Shown: positions 2,839 through 45,365 of the stretch, in pieces | How positions within the stretch are numbered: position 1 is the first letter of the stretch | How the letters are laid out: each line of letters starts with the position of its first letter | Assembly (NCBI GenBank): GCA_035498875.1 | Contig: DATJZP010000061.1 | Location: 71,321 to 135,320 of the forward strand | DNA: 64,000 nt | Direction of reading: 5' to 3' | Source of the DNA: Myxococcota bacterium | GTDB lineage: Bacteria > Myxococcota_A > UBA9160 > SZUA-336 | The notes under the pieces: model-generated | The model's input: the letters and a program-made list of their open reading frames with translations, nothing else | The model's database searches: none | What the model was told of the DNA's origin: nothing | Position numbers and translations under genes: made by a program

Positions 2839-4048
2839 GGCGCACCGGCGGGCCGGCGACGCCCAGCCCGCGATTCACGTAGAGCAGGGCGCCCGTCTCG
2901 TCGTCGCGGAACAAGCCGCGCGTCCAGCGCGAGATCAGCCGCGAGACATTGTGCTGGTGCGCCAGCGGAAGCGCGATCTGGCCGCCGTGCGTGTGACCCG
3001 CGAGCGACAGCGGGTAGCCCAGGCGCGCGGCCTCCTTGAAGTAGCTCGGGCGGTGGATCAGGAGCAGCTTGGGCAGCTCGGCCGGCACCTCGGCCGCGAG
3101 CTTCGCCAGCGCGCCGTGCGTCGCGTCGCGCTCGGACCAGCCGTGGCCCGGGTCCTCGATGCCGACGAGCGCGAGCGCCGCGCCCGCGATCTCGACCCGC
3201 GTCCACTCGTCGCGCAGCACGCGGATCTTGGTGAGTGACTCGAGCCCGCGCGCGACCTCGTCCACGCCGGTGTAGACGTCGTGGTTGCCGAGCACGCAGT
3301 ACACGCCGAGCGGCGCGTCGAGCGCCGCCAGCTCGCGACAGCCCTCCTCGATGAACGACGGATCGAAGTCGAACACGTCGCCCGTGATCACGATCAGGTC
3401 CGCCTCGAGCGCGTTCACTTTGGCGCAAAGCTCGCGCAGGAGCGGCGCGCGCAGCTGCAGGCCGATGTGCAGGTCGGAGATCTGCGCCACGCGCAGGCCC
3501 GCGAGCGCGTCCGGCAGGTTCGGGAGCGGAAGATCGACGCGATCCACCTCGACCCGCCGCTGGCCCACCAGGTAGCCCCAGAAGATCGAGCCGAAGCCGA
3601 GCGCGACGGCGCCGCCGCCACCCGCGATCAGCAGGTCGCGCGCCACGTGACCGAGCGATGCGTTCGCGAGCGCGCCGAGCCAGGCCAGCGGCCCGAACAG
3701 CAGGAACACGAGCGCCAGCAAGGGCCCCGTGACCAGCGCCGCCACGCTCGCCACCAGCCACACGCGGCCCAGGTGGTACCCGGCCAGCCCGCGCCGCGCG
3801 ACGCGCGGCAGAGTCAGGAGCGTCGCGGCGTTCGCGAGAGTGAGTCCCGCGACGGTCAGCGCGAAGCCGGCCAGCCCGAGGCTGCCCGCGCCGACCGCGC
3901 GCAACAGCCACTCGACGATCAGCGCCTCCGAAGCTGCGCCGATCACGAGCGCGCTGAAGCGCGCGTTCTTCAGCGCGAGCCGCCCACCACCCGACATCTT
4001 CCGCGCTGCCACGCCCGAGAAGGTGGCGGTTCCCGCCCCGTCGCTCAA
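2786..4048 (-). CDS. membrane-anchored metallophosphoesterase (calcineurin-like, YkuE-type)
   Basis: N-terminal hydrophobic TM segments are followed by phosphoesterase signatures: ISDLHIG, ITGDVFD, GNHD and GHTHGGQ. The start overlaps the stop of the upstream leuA-like gene by 4 bp. Confidence 0.8.
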   Translation of the reverse strand: MSDGAGTATFSGVAARKMSGGGRLALKNARFSALVIGAASEALIVEWLLRAVGAGSLGLAGFALTVAGLTLANAATLLTLPRVARRGLAGYHLGRVWLVASVAALVTGPLLALVFLLFGPLAWLGALANASLGHVARDLLIAGGGGAVALGFGSIFWGYLVGQRRVEVDRVDLPLPNLPDALAGLRVAQISDLHIGLQLRAPLLRELCAKVNALEADLIVITGDVFDFDPSFIEEGCRELAALDAPLGVYCVLGNHDVYTGVDEVARGLESLTKIRVLRDEWTRVEIAGAALALVGIEDPGHGWSERDATHGALAKLAAEVPAELPKLLLIHRPSYFKEAARLGYPLSLAGHTHGGQIALPLAHQHNVSRLISRWTRGLFRDDETGALLYVNRGLGVAGPPVRLNCAREISLHRLVPPAN

Positions 4049-5202
4049 GCGGCCGCCCCCACGCAGATCGCGATCACGTCGCGATCGCCGACTTCACCGC
4101 GCTGGTCCGCCAGGCGTTGGAAGCGCTCGAAGGCGCGCTCCAGCGCCGGTCCGTCCAGCGCGAAGCCCAGCTCGCGCGCGCGAAACGCGAAGCCGTGCCG
4201 CCCCGACAGCTTGCCCAGCACGATCTCGGTGCCCGTGGGGTGACCGATCTCGGCCGGGTCGATCGCCTCGTAGTTGGCGCGGTGCTTCAAGACGCCGTCC
4301 TGGTGGATGCCCGAAGCGTGGCGGAACGCGTTCCGGCCCACGATCGCCTTGTTCGGCGGCACGGCGACACCGGAGTGTCTCGCGACCGCCTGCGACACGC
4401 GGTAGATGCCCTTCGCGTCCACGCCGCTGCGCACGCCCAGTGACTCGCCGTGCACTCGGATCGCCATCACCACCTCCTCGAACGCGGTGTTGCCTGCGCG
4501 CTCGCCGAGCCCGTTCACCGCCAGCTCGACCTGCCGCGCGCCCGCCGCGATCGCGGCCAGCGAGTTGGCGGTGGCCATGCCCAGGTCGTCCTGGCCGTGG
4601 AAGCTCGCAGTGACTCCGGCCAGCTCGGGCACGCGGCGGAACATGTCGCGGAACAGCTCCGCCACCTGATCCGGCCGCGCCCAGCCCACCGTGTCGGGCA
4701 GGTTGATCGTCGAGGCTCCCTCGGCGATCGCAGCGCGTACGACGCGCGCCACGAACTCGGGATTCGATCGTGTGGCGTCCATGCAGCTGAACTCGACGTT
4801 CGCGGTATGACTGCGGGCGCGCGCGACCGCCGCCTGCGCCATCGCCACGACCTCGTCCGCGCCGCGCCGCAGCTGGTGCGCCAGGTGGATCTCGGAGCTC
4901 GACAGGAACACGTGCAGGCGCGGATCGCGCGCACGCGCGATCGCCGCCCAGGTCGCGTCGACCTCCGCCGGCACGGCGCGCGTGAGCGCGCAGACCGTGG
5001 CGTTCCGCACGTGGCCGGCCACCGCCGCGACCGAGGCGTGCTCGCCCGGCGACGAGCTCGGGAAGCCCGCCTCGATCACGTCGACCGACATCGCCTCGAG
5101 CAGCTCCGCGATCTCGACCTTCGCGGTACGCGAAAAGAAGACCCCGGCCGCCTGCTCGCCATCTCGCAAGGTCGTGTCGAACACGACCACCTTGTCGCTC
5201 AT
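4045..5202 (-). CDS. short-form LeuA-family synthase (2-isopropylmalate/homocitrate/citramalate synthase-like)
   Basis: MSDKVVVFDTTLRDGEQ opening with the HMGL-like TIM-barrel motif, about 385 aa with no LeuA regulatory domain. The track start at 5259 is an upstream in-frame extension. Confidence 0.8.
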   Translation of the reverse strand: MSDKVVVFDTTLRDGEQAAGVFFSRTAKVEIAELLEAMSVDVIEAGFPSSSPGEHASVAAVAGHVRNATVCALTRAVPAEVDATWAAIARARDPRLHVFLSSSEIHLAHQLRRGADEVVAMAQAAVARARSHTANVEFSCMDATRSNPEFVARVVRAAIAEGASTINLPDTVGWARPDQVAELFRDMFRRVPELAGVTASFHGQDDLGMATANSLAAIAAGARQVELAVNGLGERAGNTAFEEVVMAIRVHGESLGVRSGVDAKGIYRVSQAVARHSGVAVPPNKAIVGRNAFRHASGIHQDGVLKHRANYEAIDPAEIGHPTGTEIVLGKLSGRHGFAFRARELGFALDGPALERAFERFQRLADQRGEVGDRDVIAICVGAAA

Positions 5203-5259
5203 CGCTTTCTCCTCTGAGCCTCGCCGTCGAAGCGAAAGCCGGAGAGCAGCTCTGGGCAC

Positions 5260-5294
5260 AAAAAAACCTCTCCGGCCGGCTTCGGCGGGAGAGG
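5260..5294 (-). terminator. rho-independent terminator/attenuator hairpin (minus strand) between candidate leader ORF and leuA-like start
   Basis: Minus-strand RNA reads CCUCUCC-CGCCGAAGCCGGCCGG-AGAGG followed by UUUUUUU. That gives a 7-bp outer stem plus 4-bp inner stem with an AAGC loop, then a U7 tract. It lies 58 nt upstream of the leuA-like ATG. Confidence 0.6.
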
Positions 5295-5318
5295 CCCGAT
5301 TTGGCTTGGCCCGGCGCT

Positions 5319-5402
5319 CTAGTCCGAGAGCGCAGGGTGGACCCCACCCGCCCCGGTAAGGAGGAGCGCCAGAGCGCGCTGGGTGTGGGTCCGATTCGTC
5401 AT
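5319..5402 (-). CDS. candidate Leu-rich leader peptide (27 aa) MTNRTHTQRALALLLTGAGGVHPALSD
   Basis: The small ORF starts 18 nt after the GNAT stop and ends 25 nt before the terminator hairpin. It contains LALLL encoded by CTG GCG CTC CTC CTT, which are rare Leu codons for this GC3-biased genome. A weak AAGG Shine-Dalgarno sits upstream. Confidence 0.35.
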   Translation of the reverse strand: MTNRTHTQRALALLLTGAGGVHPALSD

Positions 5403-5419
5403 TGGCACAGCACCTTACG

Positions 5420-6376
5420 CTAGAAACGGTCGGACGTCCAATAAGTCGCGGGCGGGCGAACGATCAGCGCGTCGAGCAGCTGCGCGTCGCTCGTCGACCC
5501 GGGAAGCGCCGCGATCTCGGCCAGTGACCCGCGGTCGAGCACGCGCCACATCGGCGAGGGATCCGCAGCCAGGCCGATCGCGATGCCGCGGCGCTCGAGC
5601 GCGTCGGCCAGCTCGGCGTCGCGCACGAACGGCACGTACAGCGCGCGTTCGCCGCTCGCGGCCCCCGCCAAGAGCGCCGCGAGTGACTCGGCGCCGCCCG
5701 GCGCGCGCGCGTACTCGAGCGCGCGCAGCCGGCCGTTGAAGCTCGCGCAGCGGAGGTAGGCGTCGAGCGCGCTGGCGCGCTCGCACAGCAGGAAGCGCTC
5801 CGACGGCGTGCCGGCCGTGCGCAGCTGGCCGCGCCAGTAGCGCGCGTCGCGCACGGTGGGGCCGGAGAGCGGTGCGACGAAGGCGTCGTAGAGGGCGCTC
5901 ACGCGCTCGAGGTCGGCGGCGGTGAACGGGCGGACCGCCGCTGCCGGCGCGGCGTCGGGCCGCGCGCGAGACAGCCGCAGCAGCGGCGCGGGAATCTTTC
6001 GCCAGCCGAGCCGCTCGTAGAGCGGCGCGACCGGCGCCGCGAACAGGAGCGAGATCGCCATCCCGCGGGCCCGCATGCGCTCGAGCGCGCGCTCCAGCAA
6101 GTCACTCGCGAGGCCCCCGCCGCGCTGACTCGCGTGCGTCGCGACCGAGCCGATCCCGCCGAGCCGCACGGCGCGGCCCCGCAGCCGGATCGTCTTCGCG
6201 AACACCTGCACGCAGGCCACCGGCGCGTCGCCGTCCAGCGCGAGCAGGAAATCGCCGTAGGCGAACTCCGGGTCGAAGTCCATGTAGCGCTCGAACAGCT
6301 CGCGGATCCCGAACGCGTGCTCGAGCAGGTCGAGCACGGCGCCGCGGTCCGCGCGCTGCATCTCCCGGAACCGCAC
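5420..6376 (-). CDS. GNAT family N-acetyltransferase (Eis-like, GNAT plus SCP2-like C-terminal)
   Basis: GNAT core segments RGGGLASDLLERALERMRARG. Length 318 aa. Sits between the leuB-like and leuA-like genes. Confidence 0.7.
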   Translation of the reverse strand: MRFREMQRADRGAVLDLLEHAFGIRELFERYMDFDPEFAYGDFLLALDGDAPVACVQVFAKTIRLRGRAVRLGGIGSVATHASQRGGGLASDLLERALERMRARGMAISLLFAAPVAPLYERLGWRKIPAPLLRLSRARPDAAPAAAVRPFTAADLERVSALYDAFVAPLSGPTVRDARYWRGQLRTAGTPSERFLLCERASALDAYLRCASFNGRLRALEYARAPGGAESLAALLAGAASGERALYVPFVRDAELADALERRGIAIGLAADPSPMWRVLDRGSLAEIAALPGSTSDAQLLDALIVRPPATYWTSDRF

Positions 6377-14584: not shown

Positions 14585-15972
14585 CTCGCCGGCGTGATAA
14601 GGTCGCGTCCCGCATGGTGCCGCACGCGCTCCGTTGCTTCCGCTGCGCAGGCTCCGCGGCGCTCGCCGCGGCGCTGCTCTCGGCGCCCGCCGCGCGCGCG
14701 CAGGACGCCAAGGGCGACGCGCTGCCCGTGAAGATCGAGATCCGCTCGCCCAAGCCCGGCGAGACGCTGAAGAACAAGACCGACATGGCCCCGCTCGCGG
14801 GCCTGGCGATCGCGGGCGAGCGCGCCGTGAACTTCGACGTGATGATCGTGATCGACATCTCCGGCTCGACGGAGTACCCGAGCGGGATCGACGTCGACGG
14901 CGACGGAGTCACCGGCGTGACCGAGCGCTCGGTGACTCCCGGCGTGGACGACACGGTCAACACCGATCCCGACGACTCGATCCTGGCCGCCGAGGTCGCC
15001 GCCGCGAAGTCACTCTTGGGCGGGCTCGACCCGAGCCGCGTGCACGTGGGCGTGGCCTCGTTCTCGGGCGAGATCGACCCGAACACCGGCCGCGGCGTGA
15101 ACGCCGCCAACGACGCGCAGCTCGAGCTGCCGCTCTCCGCCGACTTCAACGCCGCGCGCGGCGCGCTCGAGGCGATCCGGCTGCGCGGCGCGAGCGGCGG
15201 CACCAACATGCAGGCGGGCGTGAAGCTCGCGCTGCGCGAGCTGGCGGGTCTGCCCGGCGCGCAGTCACAGCCGCGCGCCAACGCCAAGAAGGTGATCCTG
15301 TTCCTGACCGACGGCCGGCCCTCGCTGCCGTTCGGGCTGGCGAACGTGGAGGACAAGGAAGACCAGCTTGCCGCGATCGACGCCGCGTCGCTCGCCAAGG
15401 TGGCCGGTGTGATGCTGAACGTGTACGGGCTGGGCCCGAACGCGATCGACTATCCCGTGGCCGCGATCGAGATGGCCAAGGCCACCAACGGCACCTATAC
15501 ACCGGTGCGTGTACCCGGCGACATCGTGTCGCTGCTCTCCGGCGTGTCGTTCGCGAACGTCGAGGACGTGGTCGCGGTGAACCTCACGCTGAACGAGTGG
15601 GCCGGGCCGAACGACATCCTGCTCTTGCCCGATGGCTCGTTCAAAGGCTTCGTGCCGGTGCGGCCGGGCATGAACCGGATCCGCGTCTCGGCGCTGGCCA
15701 GCGACGGCTCGCGCGGCTCGACCGAGTTCGACCTCTCGTTCGCGAGTCAGGGCATGACCACGCTCGAGCTGCAGGCCGAGCAGGAGCGGATCCGCCAGCG
15801 CACGAAGGAAATCCAGCTCCGGCTCGAGCGCGACAAGCAGGAGGCGTTCCGCAAGCAGGAGCGCGAGCGCACGCTCGAGATCAAGGTCGATCCCGGTGCG
15901 CAGAAAACGACCCCGCCGAGCGAGCCGAACGCTCCGGCGGTGCCGCCGAAGCCTTCGATCGAACCTCGCTAG
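14581..15972 (+). CDS. secreted von Willebrand factor type A (VWA) domain protein
   Basis: Signal peptide, then a DxSxS MIDAS motif (DISGST) with VILFLTDGRP, and a C-terminal coiled-coil/Pro-rich tail. ATGA overlap with the OmpA-like stop. Confidence 0.75.
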   Translation: MTRRRDKVASRMVPHALRCFRCAGSAALAAALLSAPAARAQDAKGDALPVKIEIRSPKPGETLKNKTDMAPLAGLAIAGERAVNFDVMIVIDISGSTEYPSGIDVDGDGVTGVTERSVTPGVDDTVNTDPDDSILAAEVAAAKSLLGGLDPSRVHVGVASFSGEIDPNTGRGVNAANDAQLELPLSADFNAARGALEAIRLRGASGGTNMQAGVKLALRELAGLPGAQSQPRANAKKVILFLTDGRPSLPFGLANVEDKEDQLAAIDAASLAKVAGVMLNVYGLGPNAIDYPVAAIEMAKATNGTYTPVRVPGDIVSLLSGVSFANVEDVVAVNLTLNEWAGPNDILLLPDGSFKGFVPVRPGMNRIRVSALASDGSRGSTEFDLSFASQGMTTLELQAEQERIRQRTKEIQLRLERDKQEAFRKQERERTLEIKVDPGAQKTTPPSEPNAPAVPPKPSIEPR

Positions 15973-37713: not shown

Positions 37714-37727
<14 letters not shown>

Positions 37728-38838
37728 GCGGGCGCAGCCGCAGCACGTTGTGCGCGGGGACCGCGCGCTGGAAGCCCTTCAGCGCGAGCTCCCCCACGGG
37801 CTCGGTCTCGACCCACGACTCGACCTGGGTGCGCAGGCGCTCCGAGATCAGGATCTGCCCGCCGCCCGCGGCTTCGCACAGGCGCGCGGCCTGGTTGGTC
37901 ACCGTGCCGATCGCGGCGTAGTCGCGGCGCTGGTCGAAGCCGATCGCGCCCAGCGTCGCGTAGCCGTGGGTGATGCCGATGCCGAGCTCGAGCGCGTGAC
38001 CGCGGCGGCGCCAGCGCTCGGCCAGGGTCTGGAGCGCGGCGCGCATCTCGAGCGCCATCTGCACCGCGCGGCGCTCCGGGTCGGGAAGCTCGATCGGGTC
38101 GTTGAAGAACACCATCAGGCCGTCGCCGGTGAAGCGCTCGAGCGTGCCTTCGTGAGTCATCACGAGGCTGCCCATGGCGGCGTGGTACTCGCCCAGGAGC
38201 TCCATGACTTCTTCGGGCTCGGACGACTCGGCGAAGGCGGTGAAGCCGCGCAGGTCGAGAAACACCACGGTGACTCGCCGGCGGTGCGGGCGCAGGATCT
38301 CGGGGCCGCCGGCGGCGATTGCCTCGGCGATCTGCGGCGCCAGGAAGCGCTTCAGCCCCGACAGCCGCTCGAGCTCGGTGACCTGCGCCTGCACGCGCGC
38401 CTCGAGCTCGCGGTTCCAGCTCGCGAGCTGCAGCGCCTGCTGGCGCACCGTCTCGTGCAGCGCGCGGATCCGCAAGAGTGACCGCACGCGGCCCAGCACC
38501 TCGCCCAGGTTCACGGGCTTGGTCAGGAAGTCGTCGGCGCCGGCCTCGAGCCCGCGCATGCGCTCCTCGTCGGGATCGAGCGCGGTGACCAGGATGACGG
38601 GCAGGTAGCCGGTGTCCTCGCGGCGGCGGATCTCGCGACACACGTCGTAGCCGCTCATGCCGGGCATCACCACGTCGAGCAGCACCAGGTCGGCCGGCTC
38701 CTTGCGCAGGAGCTCGAGCGCCTCGGGGCCCGAGGCCGCCGTCGCCACGGCGAAGCCGTTCGCGGCCAAGAGATCGGCCAACAGCTTGGCGTTGCGGGGC
38801 GTGTCGTCGACCACCAGGATGCTCGCGCCGGCAGTCAT
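37714..38838 (-). CDS. response regulator fused to class III adenylate/guanylate cyclase domain
   Basis: Receiver (VLVVDD ... DLVLLDVVMPGMSG ... K), then a cyclase domain (VTVVFLDLRGFT ... GDGLMVFF). Confidence 0.8.
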
Positions 38839-38842
38839 CGAG

Positions 38843-39223
38843 TCACTCCGGCTCCGAGGGCACGAAGCGGCGCACCTCGGCCAGCAGGTCCTTCACCGAG
38901 ATCGGCTTGGCCTGGTAGCCGTCGAAGCCCGCGCGCAGGATCGACTCGCGCTCGAGCGGCATGGCCGAGGCAGTCACCGCGATCACCGGGATGTGCGCGG
39001 TCTTCGGATCGGCCTTCAGCGCCGCGACCGCCGCCATGCCGTTCATGCCGGGGAGCTGGATGTCCATCAGGATCAGCGCGGGCGCGCGCTCGCGCGCCAG
39101 CGTGAGTCCCAGCTCGGCGCTCTCGGCTTCCGCGACCTCGTAGCCGCTCACCGTGAGCACGTCGCGCAAGAGCTTCGCGTTCATCGGCCGGTCTTCGACC
39201 ACGAGCACGAGCCGGTTCGCCAC
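38843..39223 (-). CDS. single-domain CheY-like response regulator
   Basis: LVLVVED, ALILMDIQLPGMNG and AVTA...K. Length 126 aa. Confidence 0.85.
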   Translation of the reverse strand: MANRLVLVVEDRPMNAKLLRDVLTVSGYEVAEAESAELGLTLARERAPALILMDIQLPGMNGMAAVAALKADPKTAHIPVIAVTASAMPLERESILRAGFDGYQAKPISVKDLLAEVRRFVPSEPE

Positions 39224-39224
39224 G

Positions 39225-40619
<1,395 letters not shown>

Positions 40620-40660: not shown

Positions 40661-41881
40661 CTATTCGTCGACGAAGCGGGCGCGCGGCCGCAGGACGTGC
40701 GGCGTCTCACTCTGCTCGAGCACGTGGGCGACCCAGCCCGCCGAGCGTCCGATCGCGAACAGGGCCGCTCCCATGCCGATCGGTAAGTCCAGCGCGGCGC
40801 AGGCCGCGGCCAGCGCGGTGTCGACGTTGGGCTTGGCCCGGCCGGCCTCCTGCATCGTGGCCACCAGCGCCGCGATCGTGCGCACGCGCGGCGCGCGCGG
40901 CGCGAGCGCCAGCGCGGCCTCGTACAGTGGCGGGTGGCGCGGATCGCCCTGGGCGTAGAGCGGGTGGCCGAAGCCCGGCAGTAATTCGCCGCGGCGCATC
41001 CGGTCGCGCACGGTGGCGGCGGCGCGCGCCGGGTCGCCGGCCTCGCGCGCCAGCACCTCGACCTGCTCGCTGGCGCCGCCGTGGCGCGGTCCGCTGAACG
41101 CGGCCAGGCCGGCGGTCAGGCAGGCGTACAGGTCGGCGCCGGTCGAGGCCGCGACCCGCGCCGCGAAGGTCGAGGCGTTGAGCTCGTGGTCGGCGCACAA
41201 GACCAGCGCCAGCTCGAGCAGCGCCAGTGACTTCTTGCGCAGCGGCACGCCGAGCGCGAGCGCCAGCGCCCGCACCGGATCCGAGGTCTCGAGCGCGGGC
41301 TCGAGCCGCGCCGGGTCGAGCGCCAGCGCGAACGAGGCGGCCAGTTTCGGAATGAGTCGCCGCGCGCGCCCGCGCACCGCCTCGGGCGAGCCGTCGAAGC
41401 GCAGTGGATCGGCCGCGGCCAGCGCGGGCAGCGCCAGCGCCAGCGCTGCCAGCGGCGGGCTGCCCACGGGCACGAGCCGGCCGAGCTCGCGCACGGGCAG
41501 GACCGGGCCGTCGCCGGGCCAGTGCGGCCGGGCGTCGGGGAGGCTGCCGGTCCAGAGCAGCTCGGCCACGGCCGTGAACGGAACGCCCTGGCGCGCGAGC
41601 ACCACGGCGGGGCGGCCGCGGTACTCGGGACCCTCCGGAGTCATGCGCGTGATGCGCGTCTCGAGCACGGGGTCGCCGAAGCGCAGCGCGCTGGCCGCCG
41701 GCCCTTCGCTGCGCGCGCGCAGGCCCTCGAGATCGGCCCGGGTGTAGTGCCGGCCGCGGCCCCCGCCCGGGGCGCGCGTGCCCGTCACCAGCCCGCGGCT
41801 GGCGTAGGCGTAGAGCGTCTCGAGCTTGATGCCCAGGAAGTCCGCCGCCTGCCGCGAGGTCATGCGGTCGCCGCGCTTCAT
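40661..41881 (-). CDS. HTH (excisionase/MerR-like) DNA-binding domain fused to citrate-synthase-like domain
   Basis: N-terminal MTSRQAADFLGIKLETLYAYASRGLV is a helix-turn-helix. The remaining ~330 aa are citrate-synthase-like (GPRHGGASEQV, GFGHPLY). The track ORF to 43090 is a spurious extension. Confidence 0.7.
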   Translation of the reverse strand: MKRGDRMTSRQAADFLGIKLETLYAYASRGLVTGTRAPGGGRGRHYTRADLEGLRARSEGPAASALRFGDPVLETRITRMTPEGPEYRGRPAVVLARQGVPFTAVAELLWTGSLPDARPHWPGDGPVLPVRELGRLVPVGSPPLAALALALPALAAADPLRFDGSPEAVRGRARRLIPKLAASFALALDPARLEPALETSDPVRALALALGVPLRKKSLALLELALVLCADHELNASTFAARVAASTGADLYACLTAGLAAFSGPRHGGASEQVEVLAREAGDPARAAATVRDRMRRGELLPGFGHPLYAQGDPRHPPLYEAALALAPRAPRVRTIAALVATMQEAGRAKPNVDTALAAACAALDLPIGMGAALFAIGRSAGWVAHVLEQSETPHVLRPRARFVDE

Positions 41882-41899
41882 GGCCCGAATCTTGATTGA

Positions 41900-41917
41900 T
41901 TGATCAACGTTGATCAA
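41900..41917. promoter_or_regulatory. perfect 18-bp AT-rich palindrome TTGATCAACGTTGATCAA (plus adjacent TTGATTGA half-site) in divergent intergenic region
   Basis: Exact inverted repeat in a 70% GC genome. Sits between the divergent starts at 41881 (-) and 41963 (+). Confidence 0.6.
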
Positions 41918-41962
41918 GTTCCTCCGACGCGGCACCGTACCGGAAACCAGAAGGAGAGAGCG

Positions 41963-43066
41963 ATGACCTCGGACGGACTCGAGGGTGTGGTGGTGGCCGA
42001 TACGCAGCTCAGCGACGTCGACGGCGAGCGCGGCCGGCTGGTGGTGCGCGGGCACGACGTGGAGGAGCTCGCGCTGTCGAACGACTTCGAAGCGGTCTGC
42101 GCGCTGCTCTGGAACGGCGCGCTGCCAGGCGCTGCCGAGCACGCGGAGCTGCGCGCGCGCCTGGGGCGGGCGCGCGTCCGCGCCTTCGGGCGGCTGCCCT
42201 ATCTGGGCGACGCGCTCGACGGCGCCGACGGCATGGAGTGTCTGCGCGCGGCGCTCGCGCACCTGCGCGCCAGCGCGCTCGATCCAGCGGAGCTGCATGT
42301 CGACCTGACCGCGGCGGTGGCCGTGTTCGCCGCGGCCTGGGCGCGCAAGCGGCGCGGAGTCTCCGCGCTCGCGCCCGACCCGAGCCTCTCGCACGCGGCC
42401 GACTTCCTGCGCATGGCCAGCGCGCACGGCAGCGACCCCGAGCGCAGCCGCGCGCTCGACGCGTATCTCGTGACTGCCGCCGATCACGGCATGAACGCGT
42501 CGACCTTCACCGCACGCGTGGTGGCCTCGACCGCGTCGGACCCGGTCTCCGCGGTCGTGGCCGCGATCGGCGCGCTGAAAGGCCCGTTGCACGGCGGCGC
42601 GCCGGGCCCGGTGCTGGCGATGCTCGACGAGATCGGCTCGCCCGAGCGCGCGTCGGCCTGGATCGCCGCCGAGCTCGCGGCCGGTCGCCGCATCATGGGC
42701 ATGGGCCACCGCGTCTACCGCGTGCGCGATCCGCGCGCGGCGGTGCTGGAGCGCGCCGTCGAGCGGCTGCGCGCCTCCGGGCTGCGCAGTGACCGGCTCG
42801 ACCTCGCGCGCGCCGTCGAAGCCGTGGCGGTCGCGTCGCTCGGCGAGCGCCGCCCGGAGCGCCGGCTCGCGGCGAACGTCGAGTTCTACACCGCGGTCGT
42901 GCTCGACGCGATCGGCCTGCCGCAGGAGCTGTTCTCGCCCACCTTCGCGGTGGCGCGCGTCGCCGGCTGGCTGGCGCACGTCGACGAGCAGGCGCGCGGC
43001 GGGCGGCTGATCCGACCCGCCTCGCACTACGTGGGCCCCGCGCCGGTGACTCCCGCGGCTGCCTGA
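41963..43066 (+). CDS. citrate synthase family protein (short form, 2-methylcitrate/citryl-CoA lyase-like)
   Basis: GPLHGGAPGPV and GMGHRVY motifs. ATG at 41963 preceded by AAGGAGAG. Paralogous to the divergently transcribed fusion gene. Confidence 0.75.
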   Translation: MTSDGLEGVVVADTQLSDVDGERGRLVVRGHDVEELALSNDFEAVCALLWNGALPGAAEHAELRARLGRARVRAFGRLPYLGDALDGADGMECLRAALAHLRASALDPAELHVDLTAAVAVFAAAWARKRRGVSALAPDPSLSHAADFLRMASAHGSDPERSRALDAYLVTAADHGMNASTFTARVVASTASDPVSAVVAAIGALKGPLHGGAPGPVLAMLDEIGSPERASAWIAAELAAGRRIMGMGHRVYRVRDPRAAVLERAVERLRASGLRSDRLDLARAVEAVAVASLGERRPERRLAANVEFYTAVVLDAIGLPQELFSPTFAVARVAGWLAHVDEQARGGRLIRPASHYVGPAPVTPAAA

Positions 43067-43156: not shown

Positions 43157-43774
43157 ATGCCGACCCTCCCGTCGATCAAAGGCTCCGTGTTCGCCGGCCT
43201 CGTCGAGGACGTGCAGAAGCTGCTCGCGGCCAGGAAGCTGAAGCGCGAAGAGCTCACGCGCTGGCTCAAGCCCAAGGACATCCAGTTACTCGACGCACCC
43301 GTGCAGCCGTTCGAGTGGTACGACATCCGCAGCTACAACCACTTGAGCCTGCTGCTCCGCGACGTCGAGGGCGGCGGCAGCAACGAGTATCTGCGCGAGC
43401 GCGGCGCGCGCAACGCGCGGCGCCTGCTCGAGGCCGGCCTCTACCAGCAGCTCGAGTACACGCGCCGCACGCTGTTCGCGCGCGAGAGCGACAAGAACGC
43501 GCGCTTCGAGGCGTTCGGGCGCGACCTCGCGCGACTCACCACGATCAGCTCCAGCATCCTCAACTTCGGGCGTGCGACTCATCGGCCGGATCCCGACCGC
43601 AAGATGCGCTGGATCATCGAGAACATGCAGGCCAAGGAGTACCCCGAGACGCTGGTCTGGGCCTCGGACGGCTTCACCAACGAGATGGCCCGCCAGCACA
43701 ACACGCCCGACCTGTGGGCGTGGGAGCGGCCGGAGCCGGACCGCATCGTCTGGCACATGACGCGCGAGATCTGA
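43157..43774 (+). CDS. hypothetical protein (205 aa)
   Basis: Plausible composition and an AGGAGG RBS. No motifs recognised. Possibly a member of a lineage-specific paralogous family. Confidence 0.5.
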   Translation: MPTLPSIKGSVFAGLVEDVQKLLAARKLKREELTRWLKPKDIQLLDAPVQPFEWYDIRSYNHLSLLLRDVEGGGSNEYLRERGARNARRLLEAGLYQQLEYTRRTLFARESDKNARFEAFGRDLARLTTISSSILNFGRATHRPDPDRKMRWIIENMQAKEYPETLVWASDGFTNEMARQHNTPDLWAWERPEPDRIVWHMTREI

Positions 43775-43808: not shown

Positions 43809-43931
43809 AGGCCGAGCGAGGCCGCAAGTGCCGGGAGGCACGCGCAGTGAGGCGCAGGCGAAGGCCGAGCGAGGGCCGTCCCGAGCGAGGCCGCAAGTGC
43901 CGGGAGGCACGCGCAGTGAGCCGCAGGCGAA
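43809..43931. repeat. intergenic direct repeat: two ~51-bp copies of ccgagcgaggccgcaagtgccgggaggcacgcgcagtgag(g/c)cgcaggcgaa with 69-bp period
   Basis: Copies at 43812-43862 and 43881-43931 differ at one position. Each contains the GTGCC-ggga-GGCAC hairpin. The spacer repeats ggccgagcgagg. Confidence 0.75.
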
Positions 43932-43945
43932 CGAAGTAAATCGGA

Positions 43946-44791
43946 ATGGACGGTCGCATCACGCTCGCGGACGGCAGAACGGTCGGTTACGCCGACTACG
44001 GAACACCCGGACAGACGCCGGTGCTGTGGTGTCACGGCGGACCCGGCAGCCGGCTCGAGCCGAGCGGCATCGCGCCCGCGGCCGGCGCAGCCGGATTCCG
44101 GATCATCGGCATCGACCGGCCCGGCTATGGCTTGTCGACGCCGCAGCCCGGGCGCGCGATCGCGGACTGGGTGAACGACGGGCTCACCGTCGCGAGTCAC
44201 TTGGGCGTGCGCGAGTTCCTCTGCGTGGGTGTCTCGACGGGCGGTGCCTACGCGCTCGCGCTGGCCGCGGCGACGCCTCGCGCGCGCGGCGTGATCGCGT
44301 GCTGCGCGCTCAGCGACATGCGCTCGCCCGAGCTCCGCTCACGCATGCTCGAGAATCCGGGCATGGGGATCTGGAGGGCGGAGAGCCGCGACGCCGCGAT
44401 CGCCTTCGCGACCGATCTGATGGGCGCCGACGGCAGCAAGCTGTTCGCGCCCGGTGGCGCCGCGTCGAACCTGCCGCCCTCCGATCTCGCGCTCATGGCC
44501 GATCCCGCGTTCATGGCCGGCATGGCCTCCGCGTTCCCGGCGATGTTCGCGTTCGGCGTCCAGGGCTACGCCGACGACCGGCTCGCCGACGGCCCGGGCT
44601 GGGGCAGCTTCGACGTGAAGGAGATCCGCTGCCCGGTCACCGTGCTGCACGGCGCCAGTGACTCGATCTGCCCGGTCGAGCACGCGCGCCACACCGCGTC
44701 GGTCGTCCCGGGCGCGCGCCTCGAGATCCGCCCCGAGCTCGGTCACTTCAGCATCATCTCCGAGGTGCTGGGGGAGCTGGCGCGGCTTTGA
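43946..44791 (+). CDS. alpha/beta hydrolase fold protein
   Basis: HGGPGS, a nucleophile elbow GVSTGG, and C-terminal Asp/His segments. Length 281 aa. Confidence 0.75.
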   Translation: MDGRITLADGRTVGYADYGTPGQTPVLWCHGGPGSRLEPSGIAPAAGAAGFRIIGIDRPGYGLSTPQPGRAIADWVNDGLTVASHLGVREFLCVGVSTGGAYALALAAATPRARGVIACCALSDMRSPELRSRMLENPGMGIWRAESRDAAIAFATDLMGADGSKLFAPGGAASNLPPSDLALMADPAFMAGMASAFPAMFAFGVQGYADDRLADGPGWGSFDVKEIRCPVTVLHGASDSICPVEHARHTASVVPGARLEIRPELGHFSIISEVLGELARL

Positions 44792-45365
44792 AGTGGAACT
44801 CGCCGGGCCGACTGCGCACGTACTCGAGCATCTTGGCCCGTAAGTCGCTGCGTCTCTCCAGCGCGTAGAGCCTCTCGTCGAGATCTTCGAACTCCGAGGC
44901 GAAGCGCTCGATCTGTTGCTGCCGCTCGGACTCGAGGCGTGAAGGAGATCCCCCCATGCGCTTCGCTGCCTCGCGCAGGATCTTGGCGCCCTCGGGAACC
45001 TGGATCGTTTCGAACGCCGCCAGCGCATCGGGCCAGACGATGCCGGTCTCGTTCTCGAAGAACTGGGCGTGGCCGCCGTCGTCGACCTCTGCCAGGTACA
45101 AGCTCAGCGCGAGCAAGAGCCGCTGAGCTCGAGAGAAGGGGGAAAGACTCGACTCGTATCCCTCGAGAGAGTCGCAATTCAGCGCGGCGTCGACGGGCTC
45201 CAGGATCTCGGACAGGTGGGCGTGAGCAATGAATGCGTCATCGATGTCGACCTGACCCCGTTCGCTGCGCGCCTCCGTACTCCGTGGCGGGGCAGCCGAG
45301 GGCGTGCTGCAAGCGAGGCAGGCGGCGAGGACGCACGAGAGTGACTGGCTCGGTCGCAGAGGCAC
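44754..45365 (-). CDS. DUF4375/DMP19-like lipoprotein
   Basis: LSCVLAACLACS lipobox. A GGHAQFFEN-containing C-terminal domain typical of DUF4375. Confidence 0.55.
   Translation of the reverse strand: MPLRPSQSLSCVLAACLACSTPSAAPPRSTEARSERGQVDIDDAFIAHAHLSEILEPVDAALNCDSLEGYESSLSPFSRAQRLLLALSLYLAEVDDGGHAQFFENETGIVWPDALAAFETIQVPEGAKILREAAKRMGGSPSRLESERQQQIERFASEFEDLDERLYALERRSDLRAKMLEYVRSRPGEFHFKAAPAPPAPRR

Follow-up and report, generated by a model that had tools for sequence, protein, structure and literature searches.

Two citrate-synthase-like genes stand back to back in a 64,000-nucleotide stretch of DNA from a Myxococcota bacterium (assembly GCA_035498875.1, contig DATJZP010000061.1, positions 71,321 to 135,320 of the forward strand; hereafter the window), and the product of the minus-strand gene carries a helix-turn-helix (HTH) domain ahead of its citrate-synthase part. 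The arrangement raises the question of whether this fusion protein is an enzyme, or a regulator of transcription in which the citrate-synthase fold serves as a sensor. Comparison with related loci indicates that the fusion is likely to be a local one-component transcription regulator with a citrate-synthase-fold sensor, which forms a self-contained module with its partner gene and with the palindromic element between the two genes. The parts of the module in the window are as follows.

40661–41881, minus strand: HTH–citrate-synthase fusion gene, defined by its open reading frame (ORF) and translation, 406 residues, stop codon included in the coordinates
41717–41863, minus strand: MerR-type winged HTH, residues 7–55 of the fusion protein, from Pfam MerR_1 and the AlphaFold2 (AF2) model
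41669–41701, minus strand: flexible or disordered linker, residues 61–71, with an AF2 predicted local distance difference test (pLDDT) score below 50
40682–41671, minus strand: complete citrate-synthase fold, residues 71–400, from Pfam Citrate_synt, AF2 and the table of active-site residues
41892–41917, no strand assigned: operator-like element, unique in the window, fitting the family consensus and the sole conserved intergenic block
41951–41956, plus strand: Shine-Dalgarno-like AAGGAG, 6 nt before the start codon of the partner gene, read from the sequence
41963–43066, plus strand: CitA-type citrate synthase gene (the partner), 367 residues, matching NCBIfam NF009005

A citrate-synthase fold joined to a MerR-type HTH domain

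The translation of the minus-strand ORF begins with MKRGDRMTSRQAADFLGIKLETLYAYASRGLV... and contains both GPRHGGASEQV and GFGHPLY. A protein from a Myxococcota metagenome-assembled genome (MAG), P0001, is 100% identical to it. Residues 7–55 match Pfam MerR_1 with 25.4 bits, above the cutoff of 21.6. The match to the excisionase family HTH_17 (PF12728) reaches 24.6 bits against a cutoff of 27; a Caulobacter-type homologue scores 27.5 bits, and precomputed Pfam hits list PF12728 for nearly all homologues of the fusion. The match to Citrate_synt (PF00285, E=1.6e-66) extends over residues 71–400 and profile positions 6–357 of 357. The MerR_1 match above the cutoff and the full-length Citrate_synt match bear out the original prediction of an excisionase- or MerR-like HTH fused to a complete citrate-synthase-like fold.

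In the AF2 model, the HTH has a beta-alpha-alpha-beta-beta-alpha topology with pLDDT values of 70–88, the citrate-synthase part has pLDDT values above 90, and the mean of the whole model is 88. The nearest solved folds to the N-terminal domain, when it was modelled alone, were RacA, HiNmlR, BldC, CvkR, SoxR, CarH and Xis (template modelling (TM) scores of 0.6–0.73), with further matches to MtaN, CueR and BmrR; the matched fold is that of DNA-bound MerR-type domains. The coiled-coil dimerisation helix of MerR proteins is absent from the model, in which a short helix (residues 48–59) is followed by the linker and then by the citrate-synthase fold. A Foldseek comparison of the fusion model with PrpC and short citrate synthases gave TM scores of 0.7–0.8. 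The Protein Data Bank (PDB) contains no chain that spans both the HTH and the citrate-synthase part. Database labels of these proteins read "citrate synthase", "citrate synthase family protein" or "helix-turn-helix domain-containing protein". We rejected a role of the HTH_17-like domain as an excisionase or in a mobile element: the ORF lists inspected contained no integrase, and across phyla the domain remains tied to both the citrate-synthase fold and a chromosomal partner gene.

The original prediction had proposed charting the phylogenetic distribution of the fusion. When one genome of each GTDB species was scanned with residues 1–112 of the fusion and the matches were confirmed by tblastn, the fusion was found to be encoded in at least 579 species-level genomes from several phyla. 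An exhaustive HMMER search of 1.84 billion representatives gave 530 clusters of fusions at 50% identity (E<=1e-10), and most of the matches listed were 380–450 residues long. Eighty loci from Myxococcota, Burkholderiales, Xanthomonadales, Alphaproteobacteria, Cyanobacteria, Chloroflexota and Actinomycetota were kept for comparison, with matches covering residues ~4–112 at 39–69% identity. The recognition-helix sequence TLYAY(A/V)SRG, placed on the second helix of the HTH, is near-invariant in fusions across phyla, and the N-terminus MKR...M(T/S)SREAA is common to the fusion and its close homologues. This conservation points to clear purifying selection on the HTH. The HTH follows either possible start of the fusion gene, 41881 or the alternative at Met7 (41863), and would be included in the product of both. 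The position of the starts and the amino-acid identity retained over residues 4–112 dispel the concern that the HTH might be an annotation artefact ahead of the true start.

The element between the two genes is conserved as DNA

The gap between the two gene starts in the window is 81 bp. It contains TTGATCAACGTTGATCAA at 41900–41917, an exact 18-bp palindrome, abutted by TTGATTGA at 41892–41899, the first five positions of which (41892–41896) form a third half-site; both the palindrome between the starts and the adjacent half-site had been noted beforehand and were read at these positions. In the direction of the fusion gene, the element reads TTGATCAA-CG-TTGAT-caatca-ATCAA, and its strict 12-bp core, ATCAACGTTGAT, occupies 41903–41914. 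The palindrome is unique in the window even with three mismatches allowed and occurred in 0 of 100 shuffles. The description of the element as AT-rich in a GC-rich background also held, with a local GC fraction of 0.58–0.60 versus 0.70–0.84 in the flanks. A copy of the core with one mismatch, ATCAAGGTCGAT, is located at 15880–15891 inside long ORFs and is probably a chance match.

Between the two genes, conservation is confined to the element tTGATCAA-NN-TTGATTc-acaATCAA, which was the sole conserved block when the gaps of eight loci from several phyla were aligned. The consensus of the non-redundant family is tTGATCAAtgTTGATTc.acaATCaA, which the window element fits. The strict core ATCAANNTTGAT was found in 41 copies in 39 of 81 loci (~0.6 Mb), nearly all of them in the gap adjoining the fusion gene, against ~0.06 copies expected by chance as estimated from base composition. 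The best core score was at least 9/10 in 46 of the 53 loci with a CitA-type partner versus 11 of 1264 background windows (0.9%). The original prediction hung on the recurrence of the palindrome in orthologous loci, and the core is present in Myxococcota, Alpha-, Beta- and Gammaproteobacteria, Chloroflexota and Actinomycetota; the DNA half-site is near-invariant across phyla. The third half-site is real, since an ATCAA follows 17–19 nt after the first in 32 of 42 non-redundant loci. The element as a whole was originally described as a textbook dimeric-HTH operator. A conserved half-site element is indeed present, but it has three to four half-sites and is not a simple two-half-site dimer site.

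The sequence LINVD(R/Q)xIKI at the start of over-long ORFs of homologues was rejected as a conserved peptide; it is the translated palindrome. The element is conserved as DNA and not as a peptide, because other loci have it in a different reading frame (MVDQRRFDNQ) or outside the ORF. The centre of the motif is 45–195 nt (median 72) from the start codon of the CitA-type gene and 26–313 nt (median 43) from the first codon of the HTH. In Sorangium and at locus L018, the motif is ~60–70 nt from the CitA-type gene and the fusion gene is 200–1000 nt away; the motif appears to follow the regulated gene. In Kofleriaceae-type loci, which have gaps of ~24 bp, the motif is within the first ~10 codons of the fusion ORF, a position that would fit negative autoregulation.

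The same element might instead be core promoter architecture or the binding site of an unlinked regulator, for example back-to-back -35-like TTGAT(C/T) boxes with a TAnAAT-like -10 box and leaderless transcription of the fusion gene, with the HTH binding elsewhere or not at all. In favour of this reading, TTGAT is close to the -35 consensus, in several loci a TACAAT, TATAAT or GACAAT sequence that overlaps with the third half-site stands 5–9 nt before an ATG, and no Shine-Dalgarno sequence precedes the start codon of the fusion gene in the window. However, the exact half-site is conserved, together with the 2-bp spacer and the third site, across phyla with different promoter conventions, and the same motif is found beside fusion genes with quite different neighbours and orientations, while being almost absent from the rest of the ~0.6 Mb of fetched loci. 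The motif inside the first ~10 codons in Kofleriaceae-type loci cannot be the -35 box of that gene, and a promoter scan of the gap gave no match. Hand-fitted -35/-10 and leaderless promoter readings were discarded as inconsistent across loci. We regard a promoter or a site of an unlinked regulator as very unlikely; if operator and promoter overlapped, this would still agree with the fusion protein acting as a regulator.

The partner gene encodes a CitA-type citrate synthase

The product of the plus-strand gene passes the NCBIfam model NF009005 "citrate synthase" (PRK12350) with 396.3 bits against a cutoff of 332, and its best match in the PDB is B. subtilis CitA (2c6x, 1.6e-78). Glu replaces the catalytic Asp in the partner (ANVEFY), and 2c6x has NVEFY at the aligned position. 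The motif N[VL]EF[YF], with Glu at the position of the catalytic Asp, is present in all 42 partner genes with a readable motif. The gene had been described as citrate or 2-methylcitrate synthase-like; the NF009005 match and the Glu base identify a CitA-type citrate synthase, and the methylcitrate synthase part of the description was dropped. The raw ORF list placed the start of the partner at TTG 41900, which was rejected in favour of ATG 41963 with AAGGAG ahead of it.

A CitA-type gene is located directly upstream of the fusion gene in ~50 of 80 loci, and the two genes are divergent in nearly all of them. No further gene family is conserved beside the pair among the neighbours in the 80 loci, and apparent conserved neighbour clusters turned out to be antisense shadow ORFs in GC-rich DNA.

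The pair appears to have been encountered before in Caulobacter crescentus, in which citB (CCNA_03757) and citC (CCNA_03758) are adjacent and were both treated as putative citrate synthases (Berge et al. eLife 2020, PMC7083601). An E. coli gltA mutant was complemented by CitB and not by CitC (PMC7083601). A term search of the same paper found no mention of an HTH. The published citB primer encodes MSDGLEGV, which matches the N-terminus of the window partner, and a metagenome scan with this primer retrieved a Caulobacter-like contig, L081. The published citC primers encode MTDWMD... and ...SPSSSS*, and match both ends of an L081 ORF. The contig contains a CitA-type gene (NVEFY), the product of which is 53% identical to the window partner, and a divergent gene for a 392-residue HTH_17 plus Citrate_synt protein, which is 38% identical to the window fusion and ends with YSPSSSS. 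The 74-bp gap between them holds GTCAATCTTGATcaatatAATCAAT. Linked through the primers and this close relative, the Caulobacter citB/citC genes appear to be the same module as the window pair. S. coelicolor sco5831/sco5832 are another pair of "putative citrate synthases" that share an intergenic region (PMC12323332).

The strict co-conservation of the two genes as neighbours in ~50 of 80 loci, with nothing else conserved nearby, could also reflect a hetero-oligomer, in which the fusion is a structural or regulatory subunit of the CitA-type synthase and its HTH tethers the complex to DNA or is vestigial. Citrate-synthase active sites are built across the dimer interface, and the catalytic-base residues of the two proteins are complementary, Asp in the fusion and Glu in the partner. 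On the other hand, the fusion genes of Burkholderiales, Cyanobacteria and some myxobacteria lack a CitA-type neighbour within 4 kb, the HTH bears the marks of clear purifying selection, and CitB alone complements the E. coli gltA mutant (PMC7083601). A hetero-oligomer is highly improbable.

The active site is complete in partnered fusions and eroded in most others

Eight active-site residues are retained in the window fusion, namely H232, N235, H267, H306, R315, D354, R379 and R398, which correspond in this order to His238, Asn242, His274, His320, Arg329, Asp375, Arg401 and Arg421' in the numbering of the pig enzyme. The retention of the catalytic His and Asp residues had been put forward as a check, and the His/His/Asp set and the oxaloacetate-binding Arg residues are all kept. 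An assignment in which the fusion lacks Arg421' and the Arg of LRPRA corresponds to pig Arg401 was rejected, since the C-terminal sequence of the pig enzyme and the alignment offsets to T. acidophilum citrate synthase give R379 as Arg401 and R398 as Arg421'. The fusion appears to have the more canonical active site of the two proteins, because the partner has Glu, not Asp, as the base. With its complete active site, the fusion could be either an enzyme or a pure sensor.

Retention of the whole active site sustains the main rival explanation, namely that the fusion is a trigger enzyme comparable to PutA, BirA and NadR: a citrate or methylcitrate synthase with both catalytic activity and a DNA-binding domain, in which turnover, rather than ligand binding as such, would set the affinity for DNA, and which would contribute real metabolic flux. 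All eight residues, including His267, His306 and Asp354, are conserved in 46–49 of the 49 partnered fusions, and the citrate-synthase fold is complete and confidently modelled. However, the fusion scores below the cutoffs of all 22 NCBIfam models of the citrate-synthase family and citryl-CoA lyases, and far below every equivalog cutoff (best TIGR01800, 186 bits versus 421), and Caulobacter CitC does not complement the E. coli gltA mutant, whereas CitB does (PMC7083601).

The 49 partnered fusions were compared with 27 fusions that have no CitA-type neighbour, mostly from Burkholderiales. Only five of the 27 unpartnered fusions keep His274, five keep Asp375 and six keep Asn242, but His320 is retained in 25, Arg401 in 26, and Arg329 and Arg421' in all 27. 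Such a pattern would be expected of a binding domain rather than of a catalytic one. There are related members without catalytic residues but with the HTH and the motif, and therefore regulation, not catalysis, would be the function of the family as a whole. Judged from these residues, the HTH, the half-site and a carboxylate-binding pocket would be common to the whole family, and catalysis would not be shared. The idea of a sensor gains indirect support from the paralogues that have lost His274 and Asp375 but kept the carboxylate-binding residues, and from the failure of CitC to complement. We consider a trigger enzyme unlikely.

Fusions without a CitA-type neighbour

Many of the unpartnered loci adjoin genes for TctC-family receptors, thiamine pyrophosphate (TPP) enzymes, a class II aldolase or a major facilitator superfamily (MFS) transporter. 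They carry a related motif, for example TTGATTCAnnGTTCAAGATTGAA, which in several Burkholderiales loci is positioned between the stop codon of the fusion gene and the downstream TctC/TPP-enzyme operon. At three Burkholderiales loci (L021, L038 and L040), the final codons of the fusion gene, stop codon included, share their DNA with the core TCAATCTTGA (...NQS*), and here the motif seems to constrain the C-terminal peptide.

The HTH–citrate-synthase protein encoded in a Burkholderiales MAG (L016, ~4000–5833) is 608 residues long and has a C-terminal extension of ~200 residues. By eye, the extension resembles MarR, and the protein would then have two DNA-binding domains. Three fusions from Myxococcota (L032, L048 and L062) keep all eight active-site residues, and two from Cyanobacteria and relatives (L056 and L066) keep most or all of them; at none of these five loci was a CitA-type gene present within 4 kb or a clear motif visible in the upstream region searched.

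Proposed mechanism of regulation

Based on the domain architecture, the conservation and placement of the motif, the conservation of the gene pair and the residue patterns, the HTH–citrate-synthase proteins are probably gene regulators of a so far unrecognised family, in which an enzyme fold serves as the metabolite sensor. The citrate-synthase fold is, to our knowledge, an obligate dimer in all known citrate synthases. The fold undergoes an open-to-closed domain movement. A dimer of this kind would present the N-terminal MerR-type winged HTHs on flexible linkers. We infer that the HTHs bind the array of ATCAA/TTGAT half-sites, which precedes the CitA-type gene by 45–195 nt and coincides with the 5' end of the regulator gene or lies immediately before it. 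Occupancy of the active site may alter the presentation of the HTHs, the signal being carried by the open-to-closed movement. The most likely ligand would be oxaloacetate or a related carboxylate, possibly together with acetyl-CoA. Through DNA binding, the regulator would adjust the output of its own gene and of the gene for the alternative citrate synthase, most likely as a repressor whose effect the ligand relieves.

Several observations weigh against this explanation. The centres of the half-sites in the strict palindrome are 7 bp apart, which is awkward for a symmetric dimer; the TTGAT-N6-ATCAA pair, spaced by 11 bp, appears to fit better. Operators of MerR-family regulators sit in an over-long spacer of 19–20 bp between the -35 and -10 boxes; a scan of the gap for sigma-70 promoters and terminators found nothing, although promoters of this phylum are poorly modelled. 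The AF2 structures are monomer models only. The near-complete conservation of the eight active-site residues in partnered fusions is the pattern of an active enzyme, and the non-complementation by CitC is a single negative assay of a homologue that is 38% identical to the window protein.

A more extended proposal can be made tentatively, as possible rather than probable. The fusions may be phylum-spanning one-component regulators, in which a paralogue of an enzyme, with its active site intact, senses the substrates of that enzyme (oxaloacetate with or without acetyl-CoA) through domain closure, releases a three- to four-half-site operator and switches on the CitA-type synthase. In Burkholderiales, the scaffold may have radiated to other carboxylates and may control TctC-dependent uptake and catabolic operons. 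Caulobacter CitC, and probably one of the products of sco5831/sco5832, would be mis-annotated regulators.

Relationship to known systems

Enzyme-fold regulators and MerR-type HTHs on alternative sensor modules, such as that of CarH, are already known kinds of protein. A regulator based on a citrate-synthase fold did not appear in any paper retrieved by literature searches. The trigger enzymes PutA, BirA and NadR, and the MocR/GabR proteins, which combine an HTH with an aminotransferase-like domain, resemble the fusion in having a DNA-binding domain attached to a complete enzyme fold with a ligand site that sets the output. The MocR family resembles it further in that catalytic residues are kept in some members and lost in others. 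Unlike these proteins, the fusion combines a citrate-synthase fold with a MerR/excisionase-like HTH.

The N-terminal domain shares its beta-alpha-alpha-beta-beta-alpha fold and the absence of a canonical MerR coiled coil with BldC, RacA, CarH, GlnR/TnrA and excisionases. CarH likewise has a separate sensor and oligomerisation module instead of the MerR dimerisation helix, and both BldC and CarH bind DNA sites with more than two half-sites. The module attached to the HTH in the fusion is a citrate synthase, in contrast to BldC, RacA, CarH and GlnR/TnrA. We know of no ATCAA/TTGAT recognition sequence from BldC, RacA, CarH, GlnR/TnrA or excisionases. The short (type I-like) citrate synthases and the 2-methylcitrate synthases (TIGR01800, PrpC) share with the fusion the fold and all active-site residues (TM scores as given above), but the fusion has ~66 additional N-terminal residues, scores far below the family cutoffs and is 27–30% identical to the solved enzymes.

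A dedicated regulator next to a CitA-type gene has a parallel in B. subtilis. Jin and Sonenshein are said to have described, in 1994, citA as the gene of a minor citrate synthase with a divergent gene, citR, for a LysR-type regulator. The two systems have in common a CitA-type synthase with a Glu base and a dedicated regulator encoded divergently. However, the LysR-type CitR is unrelated to the MerR-type HTH–citrate-synthase fusion, and the operators are unrelated.

Other features around the module

Directly downstream of the fusion gene, the minus strand (37714–40619) encodes a histidine kinase, a stand-alone receiver and a receiver fused to an adenylate/guanylate cyclase. These genes are not conserved beside the module in the 80 related loci. 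A two-component system is likewise located beside SCO5831 in S. coelicolor (PMC9739823).

On the other side of the module, two 51-nt direct repeats with 98% identity, the starts of which are 69 nt apart, and a 17-nt sub-repeat occupy 43812–43931, between an ORF of 205 residues (43157–43774), which has no Pfam match, and an alpha/beta hydrolase gene (43946–44791). The minus strand at 44754–45365 encodes a DMP19-like protein (PF14300, E=1.6e-22), with no apparent connection to the module.

Implications

If the fusion is a regulator, the citrate-synthase fold would join the short list of enzyme folds that have been recruited as effector domains of transcription factors. The protein would be a natural sensor for oxaloacetate or acetyl-CoA, central metabolites for which few dedicated bacterial sensors are known. 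A defined operator, together with a loss of catalytic residues that correlates with a changed target operon, would provide testable predictions and possibly a scaffold for biosensors. Hundreds of genes labelled "citrate synthase" would need re-annotation, as the label would inflate the counts of paralogues in metabolic reconstructions of Myxococcota, Burkholderiales, Caulobacter and probably Streptomyces. The failure of Caulobacter CitC to complement a gltA mutant would be explained, and the module would suggest how the CitA-type minor citrate synthases, the role of which is still unclear, are controlled.

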